Shown here: positions 24,151-47,557 of the stretch, in pieces
Position numbering within the stretch: the stretch's first letter is position 1
Layout of the letters: every line of letters begins with the position of its first letter
Origin: Escherichia coli
Lineage (GTDB): Bacteria; Pseudomonadota; Gammaproteobacteria; Enterobacterales; Enterobacteriaceae
Length of the DNA: 64,000 nt
Direction: 5' to 3' (one strand)
Assembly (NCBI RefSeq): GCF_044324785.1
Contig: NZ_CP172127.1
Made by a program: the position numbers and the translations under genes
Notes under the pieces: model-generated
Database searches by the model: none
Told to the model about the DNA's origin: nothing
Seen by the model: only the letters and a program-made list of their open reading frames with translations

Positions 24151-25176
24151 TTAGTCTTGTTGATTAACCTTGCGCTCAAGCGATTTCAGACGCTTGCTCA
24201 TGTCATCAATGTTCATCACCAGTGCAGCGGTTTTGCGCCAGACTTTGTTGGGTTGCAGCGGAATGCCTGAGGAATAGACGCCTGGTTCAGTGATGGGACG
24301 CATCACCATACCCATGCCCGTAACCGTCACTTTGTCGCATATTTCCATATGCCCGTTGATTACGCTGGCTCCGCCGATCATGCAGTAACGACCAATTTTC
24401 AGGCTGCCCGCCATAATGACGCCACCGGCAACCGCCGTATTGTCGCCAATCACGACGTTATGTGCAATCTGGCACTGGTTATCAATGATCACGCCATTGC
24501 CAATAACAGTGTCATCCAGCGCGCCGCGATCGATGGTTGTGCAGGCACCGATCTCCACGCGATCGCCAATAATTACGCGACCAATCTGTGGGATCTTCAC
24601 CCAGTTACCACGATCGTTGGCATAACCAAAGCCGTCTGCGCCTACCACTGTTCCGGACTGGATCAGGCAATTCTGACCGATCTGGATCTCATGGTAAATG
24701 GTTACGTTCGCCCAAAGACGCGAACCTGCACCGATTTTGCTGTTTTTACCTACGAAGCAACCGGCACCGATAATCACGTTATCGCCCAGTTCAACGTCGG
24801 ACTCAATCACCGCGTTAGCGCCAATCGATACGTTGTTACCCAGCTTCGCCGTCGCGTCGATCACCGCACTGGGTGCAATGTTCTGCGCGGGCTGCGGCGT
24901 GGTATCTAAAATTTGCGCCATGCGCGCGTAAGTCAGGTAGGGATTCTTCACTACCAGTGCGGCACTTTTCGCGAAAGGAAGATCGTCCTGGGTCATGACA
25001 ACCGCGGACGCCTGGCACAAGCCTAAATGCTCACGGTATTTTGGGTTAACCATGAACGTGATGTGACCTGTTTGTGCAGATTGCATGGACGCAACGCCGG
25101 TGATGACGATATCGCCATCACCGTGTAGTTCTGCATCCAACTGCTGCGCTAAATCAGCCAGTCGAATTGAAGGCAT
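24151..25176 (-). CDS. lpxD: UDP-3-O-(3-hydroxymyristoyl)glucosamine N-acyltransferase
   Basis: 341-aa ORF with hexapeptide repeats, recognised as LpxD. Confidence 0.96.
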
Positions 25177-25179
25177 TAC

Positions 25180-25665
25180 TTATTTAACCTGTTTCAGTAC
25201 GTCGGCAGTGATGTCTTTTACATCGCTGCTGTTGTAAGCAACGGCGTTTGCATCAACAACCAGATCGATATCCTGGCTGTTGGCAACGGATTTCACAGCA
25301 GTCTGGATACGAGTAACCAGTTTGCCGCGTTCTTCGTTGGAACGACGTGCGCGATCCTGCTCAAAAGCCTGCGCTTTCTGAGCAAAAGTCTGGCGCTGAG
25401 CCATCACGTCTTTTTCCAGTTTGGTGCGATCGCTGCCCGCTTTCATGGACTGCAGCTTTTTCATTTTAGCCTGCAGATCGGTTTCCATACGCTGCAGTTC
25501 GCTGGCACGGCCTTTGAACTCATTTTCCAGCGTGTTAGAAACACCGGTTTTCTGCGCTACCTGCTGGAACAGGCTGCCCATATTGACGATTGCAATTTTG
25601 TCAGCCGCCTGAGCAGAAGTTGCCAGTGCTAAACCAAGACCTGCAGCTAATAACCACTTTTTCAC
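25180..25665 (-). CDS. skp: Periplasmic chaperone Skp
   Basis: 161-aa ORF with signal peptide, recognised as Skp (HlpA). Confidence 0.96.
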
Positions 25666-25786
25666 AATAAACTCCTTACCATCCCATTTGCACCGGAGGG
25701 TGCAGTTCTTTGCGTGGCCCGGCGATCTTATATTGATCGCCTAAAGTCATCGCTACACTACCACTACATTCCTTTGTGGAGAACAC

Positions 25787-28237
<2,451 letters not shown>

Positions 28238-28248
28238 CTAACTAACTC

Positions 28249-29601
28249 TCATAACCGAGAGAAATCATTGAAAAGTGCAAGCCCCATTAACAGCACCAGC
28301 AGAATCGAGCCAATGCGATAACAAAAGTCTTGAACCCGCTCGGATACCGGTCCGCCCTTGATCTTTTCGATCGCAAGGAACAGCAGATGCCCCCCGTCAA
28401 GTACGGGCAACGGAAACAGGTTAATTATCCCTAAGTTCACGCTAATAAGCGCAAGAAACGGCAGGTAATAAACTACCCCGAGTTCCGCTGTCATCCCAGC
28501 CCCCTTGGCGATAGAGATCGGCCCACTGAGGTTGTTCAGTTTCACATCACCGGTGATCAATTTTCCCAGCATACTGACCGTCAGCTTCATCAGCTGCCAC
28601 GTTTTGTCCGTGGCTTCGACGATGGCGTTGAACGGCCCATACTGGCGTACAACTTTATACTCATCTGGCAAAGGAATGACTTTCGGCTCAATACCGACAA
28701 AACCAATCGCTTTACCATTACCCGGTTTACTCTCCGGGATTAATGTCAAAGACAAGGGACTCCCCTGCCTTTCGATTTCTAACGCTAAGGATTTACCCGG
28801 GTTATCCCGGACAAGCATCACAAAGGTCACCCACTGCGTTAAGGGCTGACCATCGACTTTAACGATCCTGTCGCCTGCTTGCAAACCTGCCTTGCTTGCC
28901 GCCGAGTTTGGCTGCACATTTTCCAGTACAGGTTCAATTTGCGGCCCACGAGGACGAATCCCCAGCGAAGTTACCGGATCTTCTTTATCAGGCTCAAACG
29001 CCCAGTGACGTAAATCGAGCTTTACATCCCGCCGTTGGTCGCTGCCAAATGGCGCTACCGTAATGGTGGTGCTTTCATCGCCAATTTTATCGACCAACTG
29101 CAAACGCACGGCATCCCAATCAGGCGTTTCGATACCATCTACGGCTTTTAGTTCCGTACCTGGTGCAATTTGTGCTTCCGCAGCTATCGAATTGGCTGCT
29201 ATTTCGCCAACCACCGGACGTACGCCAGGCACACCAATAATAAAAACCAGCCAGTAGGCAAAGATAGCAAAAATGAAGTTTGCAACCGGACCTGCGGCAA
29301 TAATCGCCGCTCGTTGGCCGACAGATTTATTATTGAAGGCATGGTGGCGGAGTTCCGGAACGACCGGTTCTGCGCGCTCATCCAGCATTTTGACATAACC
29401 GCCCAGCGGGATCAGGGCGATAACATATTCGGTGCCGAGCTTATCAGTTCGCCGCCAGAGCGCCTTACCAAACCCTATAGAGAAACGCTCAACGCGAACA
29501 CCACAACGCCGGGCAACCCAGAAATGACCAAATTCATGCACGGTGATAAGTACACCCAGTGCAACGATGAACGAAGCCAAATCCCAGAGAAAACTCAGCA
29601 T
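28249..29601 (-). CDS. rseP: Regulated intramembrane protease RseP (site-2 protease)
   Basis: 450-aa protein recognised (HEFGH zinc motif, PDZ domains); start at MLSFLWDL inside the longer 465-aa ORF. Confidence 0.93.
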
Positions 29602-29612
29602 ATTACCTTCCG

Positions 29613-30470
29613 TTAAAGCGTCCTGAATACCAGTAACAACAAGCAAGCAAAGACCGGTACCGCAGCCGTCAGACTATCAATACGATCTAAAATACCACCG
29701 TGTCCTGGAATTAAATGACCGCTGTCCTTAATTCCTGCTTCACGCTTAAACATACTCTCGGTCAGATCGCCGAGCACTGAGGCTAACGCTGCGACAATAG
29801 AGCAAATGAGTAAGGTGACGGGAGCGACGTCGAGATTCGCCCACATGCCATAACCCCATGAGATTACCGCTGCAGTCGCGAGTCCACCGATAAAGCCTTG
29901 CCAGGTTTTACCCGGAGAAACCTTCGGTGCCAGTTTATGTTTACCAAACAATTTGCCAAACATATATGCGCCAGAGTCAGCACCCCATACCAGGATCATG
30001 ACATAGAGCAGCCATATTGCGCCACTGTAATGATTCTCGTCGTAGTGCCAGGCCCGTAATGCCAGCATGCCCCAGAAGAAGGGAACAATGGTTAGCACGC
30101 CAAAAATAATGCGCAATGTTTTAGAGTTACGCCAGATTGCTGCGGAACCTGGGTAAAACAGCACCAGCAATAGCGCGACAATCCACCAACCCAGCGAAGC
30201 CCAAAGTGAGATTTCAACCAGCGGTTGATGAATATTTCGGTGATATTCCGGCAACAGAAAAAGCATCAGCGCCAACAATAACCCGCATAACACCGCCAAC
30301 CATACTCGCTGCGAGCGAGTGGTAAAACCGCTAAGCTGTCCCCATTCCCACGCTGCCAGCATGCAGACCACCAGCGTTACAATGGCGAACCCCACCGGCG
30401 GCAACAGAAACAACGCCGCGATGACGACGGGTATTAACACAAAAGCAGATATCAGGCGATACTTCAGCAA
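29613..30470 (-). CDS. cdsA: CDP-diglyceride synthase
   Basis: 285-aa polytopic membrane ORF recognised as CdsA. Confidence 0.95.
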
Positions 30471-30482
30471 AAGCGACCCCCA

Positions 30483-31244
30483 TCAGGCTGTTTCATCACC
30501 GGGCTCGGTGCCGCCGAAACGACGCTCTCGATTAGCAAAGGCATTTAACGCCCCTTCAAAGTCTTGTTCATCGAAATCGGGCCAGAGAACATCTGTAAAG
30601 TAAAGTTCGGCATAGGCAATTTGCCAAAGCAAAAAGTTACTAATGCGATGCTCTCCCCCAGTCCTAATTACTAAATCTACAGGGGCCAGTTCATGCATAC
30701 AGACATGCTGGTTTAGCATCTCTTCATCTATCTGATCTGGTTGCAGGTTTCCTTGCTGCACCTTTTCAGCCAGTTGCCTGACTCCCTGGACTATATCCCA
30801 ACGTCCACCGTAGTTCGCCGCAATATTCAGCGTCAGACCGGTATTCCCGGCTGTTAGCGCTTCAGATTTACGAATACGTTCTTGCAAACGCGAGTTAAAG
30901 CGACTGGTATCGCCAATAATACGCAGACGCACGTTATGTCGGTGCAGACTCTTTACTTCGCTATCAAGCGCCCACACAAACAGTTCCATTAACGCACTGA
31001 CTTCCTGCGCTGGTCGGTTCCAGTTTTCACTACTAAAGGCATACAGAGTTAACGCCTCAATACCGTTGTTGGCCGCAAAAGAGACAGCCCGGCGGACGGA
31101 TTTTGCCCCGGCTTTATGCCCAAAGGCACGAATCTTCCCTTGCTTTTTTGCCCAGCGACCATTGCCGTCCATAATGATCGCAACATGACGACAGCCATGC
31201 GCTGGCAATTTTTCGCTAAGTGGTTGAGTAGCAGACAACATCAC
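30483..31244 (-). CDS. uppS: Undecaprenyl pyrophosphate synthase
   Basis: 253-aa ORF recognised as UppS/IspU (IIMDGNGRWA motif). Confidence 0.95.
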   Translation of the reverse strand: MMLSATQPLSEKLPAHGCRHVAIIMDGNGRWAKKQGKIRAFGHKAGAKSVRRAVSFAANNGIEALTLYAFSSENWNRPAQEVSALMELFVWALDSEVKSLHRHNVRLRIIGDTSRFNSRLQERIRKSEALTAGNTGLTLNIAANYGGRWDIVQGVRQLAEKVQQGNLQPDQIDEEMLNQHVCMHELAPVDLVIRTGGEHRISNFLLWQIAYAELYFTDVLWPDFDEQDFEGALNAFANRERRFGGTEPGDETA

Positions 31245-31429
31245 GCGTTTCTTATTCCCTGACAGGGTTTACGGTACTCAGGAATACTGAAGCCTATACA
31301 AAAAAAAGCCGTGTAAAACCACGGCATACCTGACCTTATAAAGCCAACTACTTACGATCAGATGGCGCAGACTATATCACTGAAGCCCTACGCTAACAAA
31401 TAGCGCGACTCTCTGTAGCCGGATTATCC

Positions 31430-32626
31430 TCAGCTTGCGAGACGCATCACCTCTTTTCTGGCGACTTCACGCGCGTTCGCATCAACAGATAACACATCGT
31501 CCACACATTGTGGTTCGCGCATATCCATTTTTTCCAGTACGGATAAATTCAACGCGGCGATATCCGTAAAGCGGATTTGTTGCGCAAGAAAAGCAGCAAC
31601 GGTGATTTCGTTTGCGGCATTCAATGCTGTCGTCGCTGCCTGGCCTTGTTCGAACGCCTCCATCGCCAGTTTCAGGCATGGATAACGATCATAATCCGGT
31701 GCGGCAAATGTCAACGCACTTAGTTTGCAAAAATCGAGCGGCTTCACGCCAGAGTTCACGCGATTCGGCCATGCCATGGTGTGGGCAATTGGCGTACGCA
31801 TATCCGGTTCCCCCAGCTGCGCCAGAACACTGCCGTCCTGATAGCGCACCATTGAGTGAATCACTGACTGCGGGTGAATCAGCACTTCCATCTGGCTGGC
31901 GCTGGCGTTAAACAGCCAACGCGCTTCAATGTATTCCAGACCTTTGTTCATCATGGTAGCCGAATCGACAGAAATTTTACGCCCCATCGACCAGTTCGGA
32001 TGACGGCAGGCTTGATCCGGCGTCATTGTTGCCAAATCGCGCAATGGCGTCTCACGGAAAGGGCCACCAGACCCGGTAAGTAAAATGGACACCACGCCAT
32101 TTTGCTCAAGGTCAGCGTATCCCAGATTATGCTGGATAGGTTGCGGTAAACTCTGAAAAATGGCGTTATGTTCGCTATCGACCGGTAACAATTGCGCTTT
32201 GCTCTGCTTTACGGCGTCCATAAACAGACGTCCGCAAGTAACCAGTGATTCTTTATTGGCCAGCAAAATGGTTTTACCCGCGCGGATCGCAGCAAGCGTA
32301 GGTAACAGCCCAGCAGCACCAACAATGGCTGCCATCACCTGATCAACCTCCTCAAGCGCTGCCATATCGCAAGCGGCTTGTTGCCCACTTAAGACTTCGG
32401 TGCAGCTCCCCTGTTGCTGTAGCATCGTTTTAAGAAGTTTCGCACTCGCTTCATCGTCCATTACGGCATAGCGGGGAGAGAATTCCAGGCACTGTTCTAC
32501 CATGCGAGTGACATTTTTGCCTGCCACCAGCGCAACTACGCGGAAGTGTTCGGGATTATGGCGCACCACGTCCAGCGTGCTGCAACCAATCGAGCCGGTC
32601 GAGCCCAGAATGGTGAGTTGCTTCAT
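31430..32626 (-). CDS. dxr: 1-deoxy-D-xylulose 5-phosphate reductoisomerase
   Basis: 398-aa ORF recognised as Dxr/IspC (GSTGSIG NADPH motif). Confidence 0.96.
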
Positions 32627-32639
32627 GAAACATCCAGAG

Positions 32640-32700
32640 TTGAGACAGAATAAAAAGCAAAACGCCGCCAGCCGATCCGCAAGGATCTACTGAGCGGCGT
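32640..32700 (-). terminator. Compound hairpin downstream of frr (possible terminator/attenuator before dxr)
   Basis: AAACGCCGC ... GCGGCGTTTT outer stem with nested GATCCTTGCGGATC palindrome, followed on minus strand by U-rich run. Confidence 0.35.
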
Positions 32701-32717
32701 TTTTGTCGTTCAAGAAA

Positions 32718-33275
32718 TCAGAACTGCATCAGTTCTGCTTCTTTGTCTGCCAGCGCCGCTTCAATTTTCTTGATTGCAGCATCAGTCAGTTTCTGTACAT
32801 CGTCCTGAGAACGGCGATCGTCGTCTTCGCTGATCTCTTTATCTTTCAACAGTGCTTTCACTTTGTCGTTCGCGTCACGACGCACGTTACGTACTGCAAC
32901 ACGCGCTTGTTCTGCTTCACCACGAACGATTTTGGTCAGATCTTTACGACGTTCTTCCGTCAGCGGCGGCAGCGGAACACGGATGTCGCTACCCGCAGAG
33001 TTCGGGTTCAGGCCAAGATCGGACGCCATAATCGCTTTTTCAACGGCCGGAGACATTGAACGATCAAACACGTTGATTTTCAGAGTACGGGAATCTTCTA
33101 CCGTTACGCTTGCCAGCTGACGCAGCGGCGTCGGCGTGCCGTAATATTCCACGACAATGCCATCCAGCAGGCTGGGAGAAGCACGACCCGTGCGTATTTT
33201 GCTGATTTGGGTTTTGAACGCTTCTACGCATTTGTCCATGCGTACTTCAGCATCTTTTCTGATATCGCTAATCAC
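32718..33275 (-). CDS. frr: Ribosome recycling factor
   Basis: 185-aa ORF recognised as Frr. Confidence 0.96.
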
Positions 33276-33566
33276 GTTACGAATCCTTGAAAACTTGTCT
33301 CAGTCAGACCAGACAGTCACACACAGTGGAAGTGTGCTAAGTATAGCCCTGATTAAACATATTACGGGTAATCGTCTGGATTATTAGGCTATTTTATTTG
33401 CCATTTTGGCCCTGGGCAGTGCTCGCCATCCTCACGCACTTGTGTACGCTCCGGTTGCTGCGCGCTGGCCGTGACCAAACTGCCTGCAACAATAACGCCT
33501 TATAACCAGACTTACGCCCCCGCGATACTTACGCGGAATCTTACCCTTATTTATCCATCACGGGAA

Positions 33567-34292
33567 TTATTCCGTGATTAAAGTCCCTTCTTTTTCACCC
33601 ATTACCACACGGCGCAGCGCACCCGGTTTGTTCATGTTGAAAACACGAATCGGTAATTTATGGTCACGAGCCAGCGTGAAGGCCGCCAGGTCCATGACTT
33701 TCAGCTCTTTTTCGAGCACTTCGCTGTAAGTCAGTTGCTCGTACATGGTTGCGGTTGGATCTTTCGCCGGATCAGCGGTAAACACGCCGTCAACTTTGGT
33801 TGCTTTCAGCACCACATCGGCTTCAATTTCGATACCACGCAGGCAAGCTGCTGAGTCGGTGGTAAAGAACGGGTTACCTGTACCGGCGGAGAGGATCACC
33901 ACACGGTTGTTGCGCAACAGGCTGATAGCTTCTGCCCAGCTGTAGCTGTCGCACACGCCATTCAATGGAATAGCGGACATCAGACGAGCGTTCACATAGG
34001 CGCGGTGCAGTGCATCACGCATTGCCAGGCCGTTCATTACGGTCGCCAGCATCCCCATGTGGTCGCCCACAACGCGGTTCATACCCGCTTTCGCCAGACC
34101 AGCGCCACGGAACAGGTTACCCCCACCAATCACCACACCAACCTGAATACCCAGTTCAACCAGTTCTTTGATTTCCTGAGCCATGCGATCCAGTATGCTT
34201 GCATCAATACCGAAGCCTTCAGTGCCCTGCAGAGCTTCGCCACTCAACTTAAGCAGAATGCGTTTATAGACGGGTTTTGCATTGGTAGCCAT
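33567..34292 (-). CDS. pyrH: UMP kinase
   Basis: 241-aa ORF recognised as PyrH. Confidence 0.96.
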
Positions 34293-34396
34293 GTTTCTTT
34301 CCTGAGACTGTCAACGATTGAAATGAATTAATACTAGCGACATTGTACGTCGCTTTTCAGCGCAGCCCCACAAGGGTTAGCTGAATTTACAAGATG

Positions 34397-34428
34397 GGCA
34401 CAAAAAGAAGCCGCCCTCAGGCGGCTCC
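34397..34428 (-). terminator. Rho-independent terminator after tsf
   Basis: Minus strand reads GGAGCCGCCTGAGGGCGGCTTC hairpin followed by TTTTTGTG. Confidence 0.7.
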
Positions 34429-34438
34429 TTTTCGATAA

Positions 34439-35290
34439 TTAAGACTGCTTGGACATCGCAGCAACTTCTGCTGCAAAGTCAGTCTCAACTTTCTCGATGC
34501 CTTCACCCACTTCGAAGCGGATGAAGCCAGTCACTTCAGCGTTATGCTCTTTCAGCAGCTGACCAACAGTTTTGCTTGGTTCCATAACGAACGGCTGACC
34601 GGTCAGAGAAACTTCGCCGGTGAATTTCTTCATGCGGCCTTCAACCATTTTCTCTGCGATTTCTTTCGGCTTACCAGACTGCATCGCGATATCCAGCTGT
34701 ACCTGGTATTCTTTTTCTACCACTTCAGCGGATACGTCTTCCGGTTTGATGAATTCTGGCTTGCTTGCAGCAACGTGCATAGCGATGTGTTTAACCAGCT
34801 CTTCGTCAGCGCCTTTAGCAGCAACCAGAACGCCGATACGCGCACCGTGCTGATAAGAACCCAGAACGTCGCCTTCCAGCGCAGCAACGCGGCGAATGTT
34901 GATGTTTTCACCAATTTTCGCTACCAGCGCAACACGTTCTTCTTCGAACTGTGCTTTCAGAACTTCAACGTCAGTGATTTTGCCAGCAACAGCTGCGTCC
35001 AGAACTTTGTCTGCGAACGCCTGGAAACCAGCGTCTTTTGCAACGAAGTCAGTCTGGCAGTTAACTTCCAGAATGATGCCGTAGTTGCCGTCGATTTTGG
35101 TTTTGATCACGCCGTCAGCAGCAACGTTGCCTGCTTTTTTCGCTGCTTTAATAGCACCGGACTTACGCATGTTTTCGATTGCCAGCTCGATGTCGCCGTT
35201 AGCTTCAGTCAGTGCTTTTTTGCAATCCATCATGCCTGCGCCAGTACGCTCACGCAGCTCTTTTACCAGGGATGCGGTAATTTCAGCCAT
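34439..35290 (-). CDS. tsf: Elongation factor Ts
   Basis: 283-aa ORF recognised as EF-Ts. Confidence 0.97.
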
Positions 35291-35334
35291 TCTAAAATCC
35301 TCGGAGATGTGATCTGCCCGGCATTAAACCGCAC

Positions 35335-35372
35335 AGATATAAAAGTGAAAAAGGGGGCCATATGCAGGCCCC
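35335..35372 (-). terminator. Hairpin/attenuator between rpsB and tsf
   Basis: GGGGGCCTGCATATGGCCCCC stem-loop followed by TTTTTCACTTTTAT on minus strand. Confidence 0.6.
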
Positions 35373-35547
35373 CTAACCAAACGTGTACTACCTGGTCTAT
35401 AAGGGCTCTCCCCCTTCATATTTCGCGCCGCAGATGCGTTATCTTCGCTCGCTCATCCCGGTCACTTACTGATGTAAGCTCCCGGGAATTCTCGAGCTTG
35501 CCGCCTTTCTGCAACTCGAACTATTTTGGGGGAGTTATCAAGCCTTA

Positions 35548-36495
<948 letters not shown>

Positions 36496-36640
36496 TCAGA
36501 CGTTGAATTTTCTATTATAGAAAACCTTCAGTGGCACGTTTGGCGAAATTCAGAATGATTCTCAATTTGCCCGGGTGTGATACCATTGACGGCACTTACA
36601 TATATATTGTCGGTATCACCGACGCTGATGGACAGAATTA

Positions 36641-37435
36641 ATGGCTATCTCAATCAAGACCCCAGAAGATATCGAAAAAATGCGCGTCGCTGGCCGACTG
36701 GCTGCCGAAGTGCTGGAGATGATCGAACCGTATGTTAAACCGGGCGTCAGCACCGGCGAGCTGGATCGCATCTGTAATGATTACATTGTTAATGAACAAC
36801 ACGCGGTTTCTGCCTGCCTCGGCTATCACGGTTATCCGAAATCCGTCTGCATCTCTATTAATGAAGTGGTGTGCCACGGTATCCCGGACGACGCCAAGCT
36901 GCTGAAAGATGGCGATATCGTTAACATTGATGTCACCGTAATCAAAGATGGTTTCCACGGCGATACCTCGAAAATGTTTATCGTCGGTAAGCCGACCATC
37001 ATGGGCGAACGTCTGTGCCGCATCACGCAAGAAAGCCTGTACCTGGCGCTGCGCATGGTCAAACCTGGCATTAATCTGCGCGAAATCGGTGCGGCGATTC
37101 AGAAATTTGTTGAAGCAGAAGGTTTCTCCGTCGTTCGTGAATATTGTGGACACGGTATTGGTCGTGGCTTCCATGAAGAACCGCAGGTACTGCACTATGA
37201 CTCCCCTGAAACCAACGTCGTGCTGAAACCGGGGATGACCTTCACCATCGAGCCAATGGTCAACGCGGGTAAAAAAGAGATCCGCACCATGAAAGATGGC
37301 TGGACGGTAAAAACCAAAGATCGCAGCTTGTCTGCACAATATGAGCATACTATTGTGGTGACTGATAACGGCTGCGAAATTCTGACGCTACGCAAGGATG
37401 ACACCATCCCGGCGATAATCTCGCACGACGAATAA
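36641..37435 (+). CDS. map: Methionine aminopeptidase
   Basis: 264-aa ORF recognised as Map. Confidence 0.97.
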   Translation: MAISIKTPEDIEKMRVAGRLAAEVLEMIEPYVKPGVSTGELDRICNDYIVNEQHAVSACLGYHGYPKSVCISINEVVCHGIPDDAKLLKDGDIVNIDVTVIKDGFHGDTSKMFIVGKPTIMGERLCRITQESLYLALRMVKPGINLREIGAAIQKFVEAEGFSVVREYCGHGIGRGFHEEPQVLHYDSPETNVVLKPGMTFTIEPMVNAGKKEIRTMKDGWTVKTKDRSLSAQYEHTIVVTDNGCEILTLRKDDTIPAIISHDE

Positions 37436-37437
37436 GA

Positions 37438-37466
37438 TGAAGCCGGCGAATGCCGGCTTTTTTAAT
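37438..37466 (+). terminator. Rho-independent terminator after map
   Basis: AGCCGGCGAATGCCGGCT hairpin followed by TTTTTTAAT. Confidence 0.75.
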
Positions 37467-37478
37467 GCGATAATTTAA

Positions 37479-40169
<2,691 letters not shown>

Positions 40170-40199
40170 TGTGTTTACTGATATGAAAAGAGTTTAACA

Positions 40200-41024
40200 A
40201 TGCAGCAGTTACAGAACATTATTGAAACCGCTTTTGAACGCCGTGCCGAGATCACGCCAGCCAATGCAGACACCGTTACCCGCGAAGCGGTAAATCAGGT
40301 GATCGCCCTGCTGGATTCCGGCGCACTGCGTGTGGCGGAAAAAATTGACGGTCAGTGGGTGACGCATCAGTGGTTGAAAAAGGCGGTGCTGCTCTCTTTC
40401 CGTATTAATGATAATCAGGTGATCGAAGGGGCAGAAAGCCGCTACTTCGATAAAGTGCCGATGAAATTCGCCAACTACGATGAAGCGCGTTTCCAGAAAG
40501 AAGGCTTCCGCGTTGTACCACCAGCGGCGGTACGTCAGGGTGCGTTCATTGCCCGTAACACCGTGCTGATGCCGTCTTACGTCAACATCGGCGCATATGT
40601 TGATGAAGGCACCATGGTTGATACCTGGGCGACCGTCGGTTCCTGTGCGCAGATTGGTAAAAACGTCCATCTTTCCGGTGGCGTAGGTATCGGCGGCGTG
40701 CTGGAGCCATTACAGGCGAACCCGACCATTATTGAAGATAACTGCTTCATTGGCGCGCGTTCTGAAGTGGTTGAAGGCGTAATTGTCGAAGAAGGTTCCG
40801 TCATTTCCATGGGCGTATACATCGGTCAGAGCACCCGTATTTACGACCGTGAAACCGGCGAAATCCACTACGGTCGCGTTCCGGCGGGGTCTGTGGTTGT
40901 TTCAGGTAATCTGCCGTCGAAAGATGGCAAATACAGTCTTTACTGTGCGGTTATCGTTAAGAAAGTTGACGCGAAAACTCGCGGCAAAGTCGGCATTAAC
41001 GAACTGCTGCGTACCATCGACTAA
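40200..41024 (+). CDS. dapD: Tetrahydrodipicolinate N-succinyltransferase
   Basis: 274-aa ORF recognised as DapD. Confidence 0.96.
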
Positions 41025-41076
41025 AAATCAGTACACGGGCAGCATGACGCTGCCCGATTTTTTGCAGGGATGGATG

Positions 41077-41889
41077 ATGATCACACGCAGGCGTTTTTTA
41101 CAGGCAGCCGCCGCGACGTTAGCTGCCGGATCAAGCCTCAGCTATATGCATTATTGGGAACCTGGCTGGCTTGAAATAACCCATCACAGCATCAGCTTTT
41201 TTAAAGACAAAGCCCTACCTTTTAAAATTCTTTTTCTGGCAGATCTCCATTACTCCCGCTTTGTTCCGCTTACCTTGTTTTCAGACGCCATTAATCATGG
41301 AGTGGCACAAAAGCCCGATTTGATTCTGCTAGGCGGCGATTACGTATTGTTTGATATGCCGCTGAATTTTTCAGCCTTCAGTGACGTACTCTCTCCCCTT
41401 GCCAAATGTGCGCCGACATTTGCCTGTTACGGCAACCACGATCGCCCCGTGAGAACGGAGAAAAATCACTTAATTGGCGAGGCGTTAAAGACGGCGGGGA
41501 TCACGGTGTTATTTAACGAAGCCACGCTTATCTCCACTCAGAAGCAGCAATTTGAACTGGTTGGCGCAGGTGATTTATGGGCCGGGCAATGTAATCCACC
41601 CGGCGTAAATGACGCGAGTCTGCCACGGCTGATGCTGGCGCATAATCCCGACAGTAAAGAACGCCTGCGCGAAGAAAAATGGGATCTAATGCTTTGCGGT
41701 CATACTCACGGCGGGCAGCTCCACGTGCCGTTAATAGGCGAACCTTTTGCGCCTGTTGCCGATAAACGCTACGTCGCCGGGTTAAATGCCTTTGGCGAGC
41801 GGCAAATTTACACCACCCGCGGCGTGGGAAATTTGCATGGCTTGCGTCTGAACTGCCGCCCGGAAGTGACGATGCTGGAACTGATTTAA
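41077..41889 (+). CDS. yaeI: Tat-signal metallophosphoesterase YaeI
   Basis: 270-aa protein with twin-arginine signal (TRRRFLQAAAATLAAG) and calcineurin-like GDY/GNHD motifs; start trimmed from the 368-aa ORF that runs back into dapD. Confidence 0.88.
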   Translation: MITRRRFLQAAAATLAAGSSLSYMHYWEPGWLEITHHSISFFKDKALPFKILFLADLHYSRFVPLTLFSDAINHGVAQKPDLILLGGDYVLFDMPLNFSAFSDVLSPLAKCAPTFACYGNHDRPVRTEKNHLIGEALKTAGITVLFNEATLISTQKQQFELVGAGDLWAGQCNPPGVNDASLPRLMLAHNPDSKERLREEKWDLMLCGHTHGGQLHVPLIGEPFAPVADKRYVAGLNAFGERQIYTTRGVGNLHGLRLNCRPEVTMLELI

Positions 41890-41903
41890 CTGGAGATTCA
41901 ATA

Positions 41904-42614
41904 ATGGATTATTTTCTCGGCGGCTATATGTTGCTACATTGCCTGCCCGTTGAGGGGCTTCATCCGCAACTTAAAGGTAAACCACTGCTAACGTGCAGTA
42001 CCTGTTTTAATGAAAGTCTGCTTTGTGCCTGGTCTTACGCGTGGTTAGGTTCCGATAAAGACTCTCCTTATGATGGCAATATGTCACTTTACGAACATCT
42101 GGAAGCCACTTTTTTGCTTACAGACGAAGACAGGGAACAGATCCGCATCCGGGCAAATGATTGGTTCAATGAGGATAAAGTTGGCTGGGAAAGTATATTC
42201 ATGGATAAATCGACCGCTATTGAATATAAACAAAGTTTCTTTCCCCATATCGAGAATTGCTACCTTCTTGCAATCTATATCAGAGAACCGAATGTACAAG
42301 AGTTCTCCCTTTATCCATCCCATGATGGTATTGCTGCAAGGCTTCTTCGCAGGCAGCCTGAACGAAATGAAATGGATGAAAAGTTATTAGGTTACGATAT
42401 TCTGGGTCTGGAAATCGGCGGGCAGTTCCATACATCTCACTGCCATCCATTGTATAACGAACTCCACCAGCGCTTCGGTCTCACCCTCAATCAACACGGA
42501 CTTTATAACGAAATCCCGGACTGGCAACCGGTCGTGGACTATATGAACGACGACGCCACGGGATGCGAACCCGTCCCCTGGGGTATCGCCACAATAAAGC
42601 AGGTAATTTTTTGA
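41904..42614 (+). CDS. Hypothetical protein, unrecognised family (accessory ORF between yaeI and yaeH)
   Basis: 711-nt ORF filling an otherwise intergenic gap; GGAG Shine-Dalgarno 8 nt upstream of ATG; starts 14 nt after yaeI stop, same strand; AT-richer than neighbours; no signal peptide or TM segment evident; 7 Cys incl. CSTC and HTSHCH motifs. Confidence 0.72.
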   Translation: MDYFLGGYMLLHCLPVEGLHPQLKGKPLLTCSTCFNESLLCAWSYAWLGSDKDSPYDGNMSLYEHLEATFLLTDEDREQIRIRANDWFNEDKVGWESIFMDKSTAIEYKQSFFPHIENCYLLAIYIREPNVQEFSLYPSHDGIAARLLRRQPERNEMDEKLLGYDILGLEIGGQFHTSHCHPLYNELHQRFGLTLNQHGLYNEIPDWQPVVDYMNDDATGCEPVPWGIATIKQVIF

Positions 42615-42733
42615 TTTTTACGCCATGATAGAAGTCTGGAAGAAAAAGGCTTTCTGCGATCACAGTCGAGCCGAGCGGGCCAGGCCAAATGCTAAAATAA
42701 GCACAATTTACTGACTCATTTTGAGGTAACGCT

Positions 42734-43120
42734 ATGTACGACAATCTGAAAAGTCTGGGTATTACCAATCCTGAAGAAATTGATCGTTACAGCCTCCGGC
42801 AGGAAGCCAACAACGATATTCTGAAAATCTATTTCCAGAAAGACAAAGGCGAGTTTTTTGCCAAGAGCGTGAAATTTAAATATCCGCGTCAGCGTAAAAC
42901 GGTCGTCGCCGATGGTGTGGGTCAGGGTTATAAAGAAGTGCAGGAGATTAGCCCTAATCTTCGCTATATCATTGATGAGTTAGATCAAATCTGCCAGCGT
43001 GACCGCAGCGAAGTTGATCTTAAGCGTAAGATCCTCGACGACTTACGTCACCTGGAGTCAGTAGTAACCAATAAGATCAGCGAGATTGAAGCCGATCTGG
43101 AAAAACTGACGCGTAAATAA
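42734..43120 (+). CDS. yaeH: UPF0325 protein YaeH
   Basis: 128-aa ORF recognised as YaeH; GAGG SD upstream. Confidence 0.92.
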
Positions 43121-43132
43121 TGCCATTCTGTG

Positions 43133-43164
43133 GGCCGGGTAAAGTCTCACCCGGCTGTAATTTT
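43133..43164 (+). terminator. Rho-independent terminator after yaeH
   Basis: GCCGGGTAAAGTCTCACCCGGC hairpin followed by TGTAATTTT. Confidence 0.6.
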
Positions 43165-43173
43165 GTCATCGAC

Positions 43174-44331
43174 CTACCGCTCTTCATCCAGTTGTAACGC
43201 CACATACAGCAGCAATCTGTCATCAAAATTGCCCAAATCAAGCCCGGTCAGTTCCGATATACGATTAAGCCGATACTCCAGAGTATTACGATGAATAAAC
43301 AACGCCTTTGACGTTGCCAGCGGTTGCACATTGTGGCGAAACCACGCCGCCAGCGTTCGCCGCAGCAAGCCGTTATTGTCCATCGCTTTCAGCCGCGCCA
43401 GCGGTCGCGCCAGTTCGTTGGCCTGCCAGTCGCCACGCAAACTGTCGAGTAACACAGGCAACATCAGATCCTGATAAAAATAGCAGCGACTTTCAGGCAT
43501 TCGCTGTTTACCCACCACCATCGTCGTTTTCGCCGTACGATAGGATCGGGCAATACTGCCCGGTCCGGTAAAATAGTTGCCCAGCGAAACGCGAAAACGC
43601 AGCTGGCCGTACTCTTTCATGCGGGTAATGAGTTGTTCAACTCGCTTACGATGATCTTCTGCATCCCAGCGCCCAAAAGAGTTCAACGCCGGTTTCAACA
43701 CCACCATTTCGGTCAGCGAGACAATCGCCACCAGATTATTACGCTCAGGCGTAGTCAGCGCGTTTTGCAGTTGCTGTAACTCCGCCATTGCGCTGTCCAC
43801 GCCAAGCTGACCGCTGTCGACCTCAACAATAGCCACCACTCGCGGTTGATTGAGATCGATCCCCAGCCGTTGCGCCCATTCAGTAAGTGCGGGGGTATTC
43901 TCCTCAGCCTGAATCAGGTTCATCACCAGTTCTTCCCGCAAACGGCTATCCTGCGCCAACAGGTGCATCAACCGCGACTGTTCCAGCATCATTTCAGCCG
44001 TCATGCAGACCAGTTCGCCATATTTACGCAGGTTCTCTGGTTCACCAGTCAGGCCAATTACGCCGACAATTTCACCTTCCAGCCGTAACGGTAGATTAAT
44101 CCCTTGCCGCACACCGTGCAGATGACGTGCCACCGCGTCATCGATATCCACTACTCGTCCCTGTGAAAGTACCAGCAATGCACCTTCGTGCAATTCACCA
44201 ATACGCTCACGATCGCCGCTGCCGATAATTCGCCCGCGGGCATCCATTACGTTGATATTGGTATCGATGATGCGCATGGTACGTGCCACGATATCCTGCG
44301 CCATTTTGGTATCAAGATGCCAGCCAGCCAT
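43174..44331 (-). CDS. cdaR: Carbohydrate diacid regulator (SdaR)
   Basis: 385-aa protein recognised as CdaR with C-terminal HTH; start at MAGWHLD inside the 391-aa ORF. Confidence 0.9.
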   Translation of the reverse strand: MAGWHLDTKMAQDIVARTMRIIDTNINVMDARGRIIGSGDRERIGELHEGALLVLSQGRVVDIDDAVARHLHGVRQGINLPLRLEGEIVGVIGLTGEPENLRKYGELVCMTAEMMLEQSRLMHLLAQDSRLREELVMNLIQAEENTPALTEWAQRLGIDLNQPRVVAIVEVDSGQLGVDSAMAELQQLQNALTTPERNNLVAIVSLTEMVVLKPALNSFGRWDAEDHRKRVEQLITRMKEYGQLRFRVSLGNYFTGPGSIARSYRTAKTTMVVGKQRMPESRCYFYQDLMLPVLLDSLRGDWQANELARPLARLKAMDNNGLLRRTLAAWFRHNVQPLATSKALFIHRNTLEYRLNRISELTGLDLGNFDDRLLLYVALQLDEER

Positions 44332-44439
44332 AAGTCCTCCGTTATGCACGGCTTAGCATAAGGAAGTACGTAACGTACGGCATTGTGCAAATGCCCAAAG
44401 GATGATGAAGATGTATGGAGTTGTGGCGAAGTTCACAGA

Positions 44440-44477
44440 TTGTAAGGAGAACCCCTTCCCGTATTCAGGAAGGGGTT
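44440..44477 (-). terminator. Terminator hairpin after degP
   Basis: AACCCCTTCC-loop-GGAAGGGGTT 10-bp stem immediately downstream of degP stop. Confidence 0.55.
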
Positions 44478-44485
44478 GAGGGAGA

Positions 44486-45910
44486 TTACTGCATTAACAG
44501 GTAGATGGTGCTGTCGCCGCGCTGAATGTTCAGTGCCAGCACAGACGGTTTGCTGTCGAGAACTTTACGCAGTTCAGCGATATTTTTCACTGCCTGCTGG
44601 TTCGCGCCAATAATCACATCACCTTTTTTCAGGCCGATCTGCGCAGCCGGAGTGCCCGTTTTCACGTTGTTCACTACCACGCCCTGATCTTTGCCTTTGT
44701 TGCTCATCTCAGCGCCTTCAATGCCGTTGAAGATGGAGCTGGAATCAACCTGATTCTGGCTGCTCTGCTGCAGTTCCAGGTTCACGTTAACCTGCTTACC
44801 GTCGCGCAGTAAGCCCAGGGTCAGTTTGCTACCCACCGGCATAGTACCCACCTGAGCACGCAGCGCGGCAAAGCTGCTGATTGGCTTACCGTTCAGTGAG
44901 GTGATCACATCACCCGCTTTAATGCCCGCTTTTGCAGCGGAGGAGTTAGGCAGAACCTGGCTTACGAAAGCACCGCGCTGGGCGTCAACTTTCATCGCTT
45001 TCGCCAGTTCGGAGTTCAGCTCAGTCCCCATAATACCCAGCTCACCGCGTTTCACCTGGCCGTATTCCACCATCTGAGAGGTCAGGTTTTTCACCATGTT
45101 ACTCGGGATAGCAAAACCGATACCGATGTTGCCGCCGTCCGGTGCGAGGATCGCGGTGTTGATACCGATCAGTTCGCCGTTCAGGTTAACCAACGCACCA
45201 CCGGAGTTACCACGGTTGATCGCTGCATCGGTCTGGATGAAGTTTTCGTAGTTTTCAGCATTCAGGCCGCTACGCCCCAGCGCAGAGACAATCCCGGAAG
45301 TTACCGTCTCACCCAGACCAAACGGGTTACCAATTGCTACGGTGTAATCACCCACGCGCAGTGCATCAGAATCCGCCATCTTAATTGCGGTCAGATTTTT
45401 CGGGTTCTGGATCTGGATCAGCGCGATATCAGAGCGCGGATCTTTGCCAACCATCTTCGCGTCGAACTTACGACCATCGCTCAGCTGGACTTTAATCACC
45501 GTCGCGTTATCAACAACGTGGTTGTTGGTGACGACATAGCCTTTATCGGCATCAATGATGACGCCGGAACCCAGCGCCATGAATTTCTGTTGCTGGCCGC
45601 CGCCATTACCGCCCTGGCCCCCCTGGCAGAACGGAGAGCTCTGGAACGGAGAACCTTCCTGGCAGAACGGAGAATCATCACCGAAGAACTGCTGGAAATT
45701 ACGCGGCATACGCGGCGTATTAACGGTTGTGCTACCTTCTACGTTAATGCTGACCACTGAAGGCATCACCTTTTCGAGCATCGGTGCAAGGCTTGGCATC
45801 TGCTGGGCTGTCGTTGCTGAAGAAGTCTCAGCCGCCGTTGCAGAGAGCGGAGATAACGCCAAACCTAAACTCAGAGCCAGTGCACTCAGTGCTAATGTGG
45901 TTTTTTTCAT
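44486..45910 (-). CDS. degP: Periplasmic serine endoprotease/chaperone DegP (HtrA)
   Basis: 474-aa ORF with signal peptide, trypsin-like domain (GNSGGAL) and two PDZ domains; recognised DegP. Confidence 0.97.
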   Translation of the reverse strand: MKKTTLALSALALSLGLALSPLSATAAETSSATTAQQMPSLAPMLEKVMPSVVSINVEGSTTVNTPRMPRNFQQFFGDDSPFCQEGSPFQSSPFCQGGQGGNGGGQQQKFMALGSGVIIDADKGYVVTNNHVVDNATVIKVQLSDGRKFDAKMVGKDPRSDIALIQIQNPKNLTAIKMADSDALRVGDYTVAIGNPFGLGETVTSGIVSALGRSGLNAENYENFIQTDAAINRGNSGGALVNLNGELIGINTAILAPDGGNIGIGFAIPSNMVKNLTSQMVEYGQVKRGELGIMGTELNSELAKAMKVDAQRGAFVSQVLPNSSAAKAGIKAGDVITSLNGKPISSFAALRAQVGTMPVGSKLTLGLLRDGKQVNVNLELQQSSQNQVDSSSIFNGIEGAEMSNKGKDQGVVVNNVKTGTPAAQIGLKKGDVIIGANQQAVKNIAELRKVLDSKPSVLALNIQRGDSTIYLLMQ

Positions 45911-45949
45911 GTATTTCAGTCTCGATTAACAGATAACGCAAAATTGCTG

Positions 45950-45990
45950 TGTTCTTCAGATTCGTTTTATAGCGCGAAGTTCCGAACTAA
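45950..45990 (-). promoter_or_regulatory. Sigma-E (RpoE) promoter of degP
   Basis: Minus strand reads CGGAACTTCGCGCTATAAAACGAATCTGAAGAACAC: -35 GGAACTT and -10 TCTGA with canonical spacing. Confidence 0.7.
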
Positions 45991-46039
45991 AGTTTCTGCA
46001 AAAGGTAAAAATTTATTGTTCGTCTTTACAAAAGCCTGG

Positions 46040-47557
46040 TTATTGTTCTACGGCCATCAGACGTCGGTATTCATCCCAGGCATAGAGGTCGGTCATACCG
46101 CTGATATAATCCTGCAGCAGGCGGCAACGGTAATAATATTCCCATAGCGGAAACTCAGGAGAATCTGACGGTAATTTACTGACAGCCTCGACATAGGCCA
46201 GCCGATGGCGCGTCGAGAGTTTGTGGAATAAGCGCGATTCAATAGGGAAACGTTTCACCCGTTCTTTTTCTACCAGTTCAGTAAAGTCTGATAACGACAG
46301 GCTTAATAAAGGACGATAAATCTCTAATAATCCGCTAATGACCCGATAGCCCTGCAATTCAAGCTGCTCGACATCTGGATGGCTAAATACATGTTTTACA
46401 GCGACATTTTTATATAGCTTTAGAAGATCGCTGCATTCGCTGGCATCTTCCAATAATGCATGATTAAACGTTCCGGCGAAAATCGCAGGCAGATTATCAA
46501 TAAATCGTTGTGCCGCGTAGGGTACCAGTTTATTTAGGGTGTTTACCCGTAAATACATAAAAAACTGATCTTCCGTACTGCGGCTTAAAGTATTTGAGCG
46601 TGATTTTTCCCAGGCATTTTCAACCACCAGCGAAAAGAGCGAACCTTTCTCATGCTTGCCCCACGCTTCGTGCAAATGATGATAAAGCTGCTCAACGCTA
46701 AATATTCTTTTCTCTACCGCATCTTCAAGATCTGCCACACAATAGGAGATGTCGTCGGCAGCTTCCATAATCCACGTTAATGGAAAACGACTGTAAAGCG
46801 CCAAATTAAGTTCTTTACGCAACCGGGCAATATAGGCTTCTTCAGAAAGATAATAACCCGGCTTTTTCATTAAATAGTGATGTGTCTCAGGCGTTTCGCC
46901 ACGCCACCACGCCGGACGGGTATATTTTAAAATAACGCCAACCTGTGCCCAGGTGAGATTCATCCGCATCAATGTATGCACCAGACGAATGCCTTGTGCA
47001 TTCCCCTCAAAATGACATAAGTCCTGACGAATCTTGCGCCGCAGCTCGTTAAGCGGTTCTTCCCCGTCCCGTAAACGTAGTGCCGCCACGCTGCAGCGAT
47101 CGTCAGTCAGAGGCTGGCTTTCGGCATCTTCCGGGTGCAAACGTTGGCGAAACCAGTCATTTATCGCTGCTTCGCCAAAATGACCAAACGGCGGATTGCC
47201 GATATCGTGCATCAGGCATGACATCTCAACAATGCTTTCAAAAGGTCCGGTCAGTTCATCCAGGCCGTATGCTTCCAGCAATTTAAGCTCTTTCAGACGG
47301 CTTAAAATTTCTTTGGCGATGTAGCGCCCCACCTGCTGGACTTCCATTGAGTGGGTAAGACGCGTGCGCACGGCAGCATTGCGCTCCAGTGGAAAAACCT
47401 GGGTCTTTTGTTGCAGACGACGAATTGCCGGAGAGTTGATGATACGCCCGCGATCGCTCTCGAAGATCCGCAGAATCTCATGTTCGGTTTTAACGCCCTG
47501 CGGTGAACGGTAACGACGATGCCAGTTTATTTTTTTTCGGAAATCAATCTGTGCCAT
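46040..47557 (-). CDS. dgt: dGTP triphosphohydrolase
   Basis: 505-aa ORF with HD motif; recognised Dgt. Confidence 0.95.

Follow-up and report, generated by a model that had tools for sequence, protein, structure and literature searches.

A putative cytoplasmic metalloenzyme of a new protein family with a candidate Cys-His-Cys site, whose ancestral gene appears to have been lost from mainstream Escherichia coli

Background

Beta-class carbonic anhydrases (CxDxR...HxxC) and the catalytic zinc site of alcohol dehydrogenase exemplify Cys-His-Cys zinc centres. Here we discuss a gene of E. coli whose product may possess a site of this kind. The gene is situated between yaeI and yaeH in a stretch of 64,000 nt (contig NZ_CP172127.1, assembly GCF_044324785.1), to which we refer as the window. 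Judging from its relatives, the product would share the set of two Cys and one His with these enzymes, and the likeness would extend to a conserved carboxylate nearby and to the provision of ligands by an N-terminal loop and a strand-to-helix turn. The zinc-binding anti-sigma (ZAS) motif, H-x3-C-x2-C, invites another comparison, as the family shares its His-x3-Cys spacing and a distant upstream Cys. However, the window protein has Leu at position 183 in place of the second cysteine of the CxxC. It is also an alpha/beta protein of 236 aa, unlike the small, helical ZAS domains, and its gene has neither a sigma-factor gene nearby nor a Pfam match.

Two further systems resemble the locus rather than the site. 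Tat proofreading chaperones of the TorD/DmsD/NapD type are small cytoplasmic proteins encoded in an operon with a twin-arginine protein, and such an arrangement is apparent here. Unlike in those systems, no sequence or fold match exists and the linkage to yaeI is confined to enterics, where it is dispensable in both directions. Orphan immunity genes (SUKH/Imm) share with our gene a stand-alone cytoplasmic product of about 230 aa, patchy spread and divergent alleles at one slot. In contrast to them, none of 130 family members matches a Pfam Imm or SUKH family, the SUKH folds in the PDB are unmatched, and the gene neither adjoins a toxin gene nor forms arrays and is under purifying selection.

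We propose that the gene specifies a putative cytoplasmic metalloenzyme of a new family with a Cys-His-Cys site, and that it is an ancestral gene which mainstream E. coli has lost. We would give this reading as a whole an even chance of being correct. Many dark families of this sort exist. What makes this one experimentally tractable is an E. coli-compatible member and a locus open to simple allelic exchange in K-12.

Results and discussion

The gene and its neighbours

The left-hand neighbour of yaeI is dapD (40200-41024), and yaeH is followed by cdaR on the minus strand. The features of the locus are as follows.

41036..41056, plus strand: terminator-like hairpin 3' of dapD, at the left edge of the variable yaeI+ORF segment
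41060-42563: variable yaeI+ORF segment, an indel relative to strain CFSAN061763
41077..41889, plus strand: yaeI, metallophosphoesterase with an RRRFLQ twin-arginine-like N-terminus
41892..41895, plus strand: Shine-Dalgarno GGAG, 8 nt 5' of the ATG, by direct reading
41904..42614, plus strand: coding sequence of the 236-aa protein (ORF with its stop codon), from homologues and dN/dS
42615..42733, plus strand: spacer 5' of yaeH, nearly invariant in Escherichia, with TGCTAAAAT inside
42734..43120, plus strand: yaeH (DUF3461), the conserved right-hand neighbour

Direct reading and the ORF list agree that the ORF is intact, with a length of 711 nt or 236 codons, and its ATG is 14 nt 3' of the yaeI stop codon. 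A preliminary description of this DNA had reported the ORF, the N-terminus of its product and the GGAG ahead of it, and all three are present. Is this a gene or a chance ORF? The start Met is common to the product and its full-length homologues in alignment, dN/dS is 0.20 (dS 0.12) between the window allele and that of Escherichia sp. MOD1-EC7003, and pN is lower than pS in every region of every pair of alleles. On these grounds the ORF is a real gene. It is under purifying selection and its protein is constrained throughout, the centre (residues 46-158) evolving fastest with dN of about 0.5. Region-wise dN/dS gave no sign of positive selection, though this test is a weak one with dS saturated between divergent alleles.

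The G+C content of the ORF is 45.4%, with 45.5% in the first 110 nt and 41-44% in the middle, much as the preliminary description had estimated by hand. Its statement that the ORF is AT-richer than the neighbouring genes is right for dapD (52.5%) and yaeI (50.9%), as it is for the window as a whole (52.2%), but wrong for yaeH (43.9%). Since this core neighbour is equally AT-rich, low G+C is not distinctive here and is a weak argument for the horizontal acquisition that had been read from it.

The protein has a mass of 27.4 kDa, is acidic (pI 4.8) and hydrophilic, and contains 7 Cys and 10 His. Neither a signal peptide nor a membrane segment is predicted from its sequence, and a soluble, cytoplasmic protein would be the best explanation of these properties. 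The spacing of 14 nt, together with the lack of a terminator-like site between the ORF and yaeH (42615-42733; the next one is 3' of yaeH), suggests that yaeI and the ORF are probably co-transcribed, possibly with yaeH. A candidate extended -10 element for yaeH, TGCTAAAAT, is located near 42689-42697. In K-12 a constitutive sigma-70 promoter has been mapped to the yaeI-yaeH spacer (PMC3946193).

An Rfam scan of the region found no RNA above threshold. A sub-threshold sroE-like match on the minus strand (41021-41065; 23 bits against a gathering threshold of 51, E=0.019) falls on the dapD terminator hairpin and is probably a chance likeness of terminator stems.

A widespread family with no described relatives

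A word-indexed search returned 21 clusters, with full-length matches at E-values from 1e-30 to 1e-164. An exhaustive profile search of 1.84 billion representatives extended this to 727 relatives at E<=1e-3, 435 of them at E<=1e-10; these are clusters at 50% identity and the figure is a lower bound. Nearly all are single-domain proteins of 215-260 aa; A0A0Q8PQX5, a fusion of 402 aa, has an extra domain. Members occur in many Bacteroidota, in Acinetobacter, Acidobacteriota and Ignavibacteria, and in a spirochaete and a Clostridiales MAG. Through the AFDB the list grows by Leptospira, Paenibacillus, Bacillus, Deinococcus, Stigmatella and Akkermansia, and the window protein matches the AFDB models of the family with TM-scores of 0.8-0.96. 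In NCBI and UniProt these proteins are unnamed and labelled 'hypothetical protein'. The motifs GGY, SxC, GWPxVF, LGYDxxG, FH(S/T)xxC, NxxGL and EPVxW run through the family and are conserved in the window protein, which by these sequence matches belongs to a single widespread, sparsely distributed and uncharacterised family. A 3,347-aa match was discarded as spurious, the protein being repetitive. In Candidatus Brachybacter algidus the homologue is split into two adjacent ORFs, by a frameshift, as a pseudogene or through an assembly error.

The suggestion of the preliminary description that the product belongs to no family one could name holds for Pfam, NCBIfam, PHROGs, PADLOC and the sequences of the PDB. 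In Pfam-A the best E-value of the window protein was 0.059, and 0 of 130 diverse members reached E<=0.001. NCBIfam and PADLOC (13 members) and PHROGs (3 members) gave nothing better than E=0.008, far short of curated cut-offs. Sequence and profile searches of the PDB gave no match, and a second word-indexed search with a broad alignment added no named or fused relatives. The family is unrelated to known families.

The AlphaFold2 model is confident (pLDDT 90.7, pTM 0.89). It consists of a mixed sheet (strands 3-12, 119-127, 159-169, 175-177 and 226-234) and seven helices, and its structural neighbours all come from its own family. The predicted fold is thus alpha/beta and, as modelled, unlike any solved structure. 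We use the word new in the sense of distance from the described families and folds tested; it concerns the family rather than a biological mechanism. In all, hundreds of sequence clusters from Bacteroidota, Proteobacteria, Firmicutes, Deinococcota, Spirochaetota and others make up a family for which neither a domain model nor a structure exists and no fold neighbour is predicted.

A conserved Cys/His site

Three short stretches of the gene encode most of the residues that matter for the following argument.

41994..42005, plus strand: codons for Cys31-Ser-Thr-Cys34; Cys34 is a family-wide ligand candidate, Cys31 is subfamily-specific
42429..42446, plus strand: codons for His176-Thr-Ser-His179-Cys180-His181; His176 and Cys180 are family-wide, His179 and His181 subfamily-specific
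42564..42581, plus strand: codons for Cys221-Glu222-Pro-Val-Pro-Trp226, the C-terminal motif; Glu222 is conserved in 91% and Trp226 in 98% of the family

G7, C34, G163, G168, C180, N196, G199, L200, E222 and W226 hardly vary among 130 diverse members, and the next most conserved positions are D/E165 (100%), S/T177 (98%), H176 (88%) and S32 (85%); Asn196 stands at 95%. Mean-field direct-coupling analysis of 219 non-identical sequences (Neff 179) ranked C34-H176 third and C34-C180 eighth of about 26,000 pairs, a signal which for these three positions rests on about 14 divergent sequences that possibly share ancestry. Other high-ranking pairs are F35-T177, S32-G168, T30-G173, N36-L200, H181-E222 and H181-C221, and plausible antiparallel strand pairings (120-233, 125-230, 159-234) were recovered as well. 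On this coevolution, the loop 30-36 most likely packs on the hairpin-helix 165-181 and on the segment 221-226. Cys34, His176 and Cys180 would then form a clustered site with Glu222 nearby.

How these positions vary is informative. Cys or His is present at all of 34, 176 and 180 in 205 of the 219 sequences and at none of them in 6 (Fisher p about 1e-9 to 1e-12, phylogeny not being corrected for). Four sequences have Cys-Cys-Cys and one has His-Cys-Cys, variants that keep ligand character and lose acid-base chemistry. Positions 34, 176 and 180 thus combine conservation, apparent clustering and swaps of ligand type. Since exchange between His and Cys and all-or-none loss fit metal ligands rather than acid-base dyads, we infer a metal centre at Cys34/His176/Cys180, with zinc as the probable ion. 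Glu222 is replaced in about 8% of the members that keep the Cys-His-Cys trio, so its part in the site is less certain.

In the subfamily of the window protein there are additional candidates: Cys31, which creates a CxxC, His179, His181 and often Cys221. These would enlarge the site, and a second ion or a larger cluster is possible. Three protein ligands accompanied by conserved Glu, Asn and Asp favour a catalytic rather than a purely structural centre. By analogy with enzymes that have such centres, a metalloenzyme is the most likely role.

The same residues could also be read without a metal. Cys34 or Cys180 would be a nucleophile activated by His176, with Asn196 or Glu222 assisting, in a hydrolase or transferase with a Cys-His dyad or triad. 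Such a thiol enzyme would account for Cys34-His176 being the strongest functional coupling in the direct-coupling analysis, and Asn196, Asp/Glu165 and Glu222 are polar residues of the kind typically found beside catalytic dyads. The Cys-Cys-Cys and His-Cys-Cys variants are at odds with it, as a dyad would need the acid-base partner that they lack. The fold typical of papain-like, NlpC-P60 or transglutaminase Cys-His hydrolases, in which the Cys starts a helix and the His lies in a beta-strand, was looked for and not found. We regard a metal-free thiol enzyme as unlikely, though it comes closer than any of the alternatives discussed below.

Distribution in E. coli and alleles at the locus

None of the 5,426 complete E. 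coli genomes contains the ORF, either by megablast or by word-11 blastn, which reaches 65-70% identity. The exact window protein is nevertheless found on 291 contigs labelled E. coli and its 90% cluster comprises about 380 contigs; five of the assemblies with the protein have the same gene order, and carriers can be recognised by protein EEU9145001.1. The ORF is rare in E. coli, yet no singleton. The blastn search matched 4,202 genomes; when these were sampled at even intervals, about half of the sample had yaeI alone and the other half had only the last 47-51 nt of the ORF. The yaeI alleles of this sample are 81-88% identical to that of the window, and the K-12 type is 80.9% identical (DNA). 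The yaeI-yaeH spacer of a K-12 derivative measures 161 nt and the ORF is absent from it. The expectations of the preliminary description, namely a short non-coding spacer in K-12 and a strain-variable ORF, are thereby borne out.

The gene yaeI is itself hypervariable: flanking genes show 96-99% identity where the window allele of yaeI shows 80.9% (DNA) to K-12, and the YaeI proteins of the window and of MOD1-EC7003 are 78% identical (dS about 1.0). Roughly 60% of the complete E. coli genomes, including CFT073, lack it altogether. A pan-genome study found yaeI enriched in phylogroup A (bioRxiv 10.1101/096479).

Outside E. coli, an orthologue is located at this position in Escherichia sp. MOD1-EC7003 (94.5% aa identity), in E. 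albertii (58.7%), in Pseudocitrobacter (62%) and in Enterobacter sp. kpr-6 (59%), and three metagenomic alleles are likewise placed between yaeI (or dapD) and yaeH. Only two enteric carriers were found among 100,044 species representatives. In comparison of the window with E. albertii, dS is 0.43 for dapD, 0.43 for yaeH and 0.61 for yaeI, whereas in the ORF dN is 0.33 and dS is saturated (pS 0.68-0.79 in all three thirds). The divergent alleles from E. albertii, Pseudocitrobacter and Enterobacter are about 57-62% identical. Since the E. albertii allele is as far from the E. coli allele as are those of other genera, the alleles must be much older than their host species. Comparison with MOD1-EC7003, where dS is 0.12 in the ORF and 1.0 in yaeI, indicates that the locus is a mosaic.

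Is the protein a partner of YaeI or a conflict gene?

In eight of nine enteric allele lineages the gene starts 11-14 nt 3' of the Metallophos/yaeI gene. The product could then be a dedicated cytoplasmic partner of YaeI, that is, a maturation or metal-loading chaperone or an inhibitor of this phosphodiesterase with a twin-arginine signal. The YaeI N-terminus, MITRRRFLQAAAA, is a twin-arginine-type motif; we presume that YaeI is a Tat substrate. That yaeI is likewise hypervariable and variably present would also suit a partnership. However, the two genes do not depend on each other, with exceptions to co-occurrence both ways: Enterobacter sp. kpr-6 has the gene without yaeI, and K-12 is one of the E. 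coli strains, about 40% in all, that have yaeI but lack the gene. Recombination has uncoupled them, as the disparate dS values against MOD1-EC7003 attest, and a Metallophos neighbour does not recur in 41 non-enteric loci. We therefore consider a dedicated partner improbable. A compromise can also be imagined, in which a Cys-His-Cys metalloenzyme family of new fold cooperates with YaeI in Enterobacteriaceae, for example as a cytoplasmic metal-loading or holding factor, and three ancient haplotypes (yaeI with the gene, yaeI only, and empty) are maintained as alternative Escherichia states. We hold out little hope for this combination, or for its picture of the haplotypes.

The gene could instead be an orphan immunity gene that protects against an interbacterial toxin, or a single-gene anti-phage defence, and the hypervariable locus would then preserve old alternative alleles of it. 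Its polymorphic presence and its patchy distribution among taxa are suggestive of such conflict, and so is allele divergence far older than the host species, with dS saturated against 0.43 in the flanks. Genomic context outside enterics is where further signs might be sought. There, homologues are usually monocistronic and separated from the genes to their left and right by 100-700 nt. Clustering of the neighbourhoods of 46 loci revealed no conserved neighbour beyond within-genus synteny, an example being the position 3' of cysG that four species of Acinetobacter share. In favour of a conflict role, an integrase/relaxase element carries one homologue as cargo, and a second homologue adjoins McrBC. 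The contexts of three distant members are mutually inconsistent (ADP-ribosylglycohydrolase; a HEAT-repeat protein; YjgF with a histidine kinase), and no operon partner or neighbourhood that would hint at a pathway is conserved outside enterics.

Against a role in conflict, immunity and toxin Pfam families do not recur among 139 neighbours, where the commonest families are GNAT (5), AraC (4), beta-lactamase (3) and SDR (2). PADLOC matches none of 13 members, no toxin gene is adjacent, and no tandem paralogues were found. Recurrence in defence or toxin islands or in mobile elements was not observed in the 46 loci, and neither tblastn against phage and plasmid collections nor an IMG/VR scan yielded a homologue. 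Moreover, pN is below pS in all regions, and near-invariant Cys, His and Glu would be unusual for a pure binding protein. Conflict seems to us a poor prospect, on a par with partnership with YaeI.

Loss of an ancestral gene

The metalloenzyme reading includes a claim about history. The preliminary description had left two alternatives, an insertion in the window lineage or a deletion in K-12, and the ORF-less strains allow a choice between them, because they retain in-frame relics of the ORF.

42564..42614, plus strand: stretch of the ORF retained as a relic, 16 codons in yaeI-less strains and the last 9 in the K-12 type

In yaeI-positive strains of the K-12 type the last nine codons (42585-42611) are unchanged and read IATIKQVIF*; the order there is yaeI stop codon, 11 nt, then TATCGCCACAATAAAGCAGGTAATTTTTTGA. 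In the yaeI-less strains CFT073, 7/2 and CFSAN061763, 16 degenerate codons with an in-frame stop remain. They read C*SIPWNIATIKQVIF*, i.e. C*SIPW(N/ )IATIKQVIF*, which is a decayed copy of CEPVPWGIATIKQVIF*. Relics of both types are in the correct frame and position. The motif EPVPW is the most conserved C-terminal motif of the family, even in Bacteroidota, and because it is the conserved C-terminus bearing this motif that remains, the stumps could come only from a gene that was once intact.

The two relic types are reciprocal, one retaining more of the ORF but no yaeI and the other retaining yaeI but less of the ORF. Neither is derivable from the other, which implies at least two independent deletions. 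From these relics we conclude that the ORF is ancestral at the locus and was deleted from K-12 and mainstream E. coli at least twice; deletion is the alternative that stands and insertion the one that falls. In Enterobacteriaceae the gene is placed as a second cistron after yaeI in the dapD-yaeH interval, and the ancestor of Escherichia had it. Mainstream E. coli lost it in no fewer than two separate events. Alleles that have diverged deeply from one another persist in a rare lineage of E. coli, in a cryptic Escherichia species, in some E. albertii, in Pseudocitrobacter and in one lineage of Enterobacter. In K-12, the most thoroughly annotated genome, the yaeI-yaeH spacer thus holds the stump of a lost gene that rare relatives still have intact.

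That foreign DNA was recently inserted into a yaeI-yaeH spacer that had been short to begin with is very improbable: G+C of 45% in the ORF against 52% in the window, rarity in E. coli and raised divergence in the adjoining glnD-dapD, which suggests an imported tract, would fit it, but every ORF-less E. coli examined has the in-frame C-terminal relic at the same spot, four genera have orthologues in this slot, yaeH is no less AT-rich than the ORF, and no repeats, integrase or tRNA were found at the borders of the segment. A different event, re-import of the ancestral haplotype by homologous recombination, is possible.

The window can be aligned with CFSAN061763 at 99.0% identity over 25094-41059 and 98.9% over 42564-46491. 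Between these blocks there is a clean indel, with 41060-42563 of the window (yaeI and ORF, 1,504 bp) corresponding to about 107 bp in CFSAN061763. The filler of about 107 bp in CFT073-type strains is AT-rich and by tblastn shows no similarity to yaeI or to any allele of the ORF. The dapD-yaeI-yaeH region is just 91-93% identical to complete E. coli genomes, and the 20 kb downstream are 98.5% identical to many E. coli. An assignment of the window to a non-coli Escherichia on the strength of the 91-93% was rejected, as the flanks are 99% E. coli. In the 3.5 kb to the left of the segment (37500-41059; 3' glnD and dapD) the window is 95-97% identical to the complete E. coli genome closest to it, down from 99-100% further away. 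This drop is consistent with a recombination tract that arrived with the yaeI+ORF haplotype, or with an old haplotype.

To the right, the last 30 nt of the ORF and the 119-nt spacer (42585-42733) are near-invariant in all Escherichia, with the ORF present or absent, and are partially conserved in Pseudocitrobacter and Enterobacter. The last 10 codons of the ORF have 0 synonymous changes between the window and E. albertii, whereas the rest of the gene is saturated. This suggests that 42585-42733 may be a regulatory element of yaeH or the right-hand recombination boundary of allele exchange.
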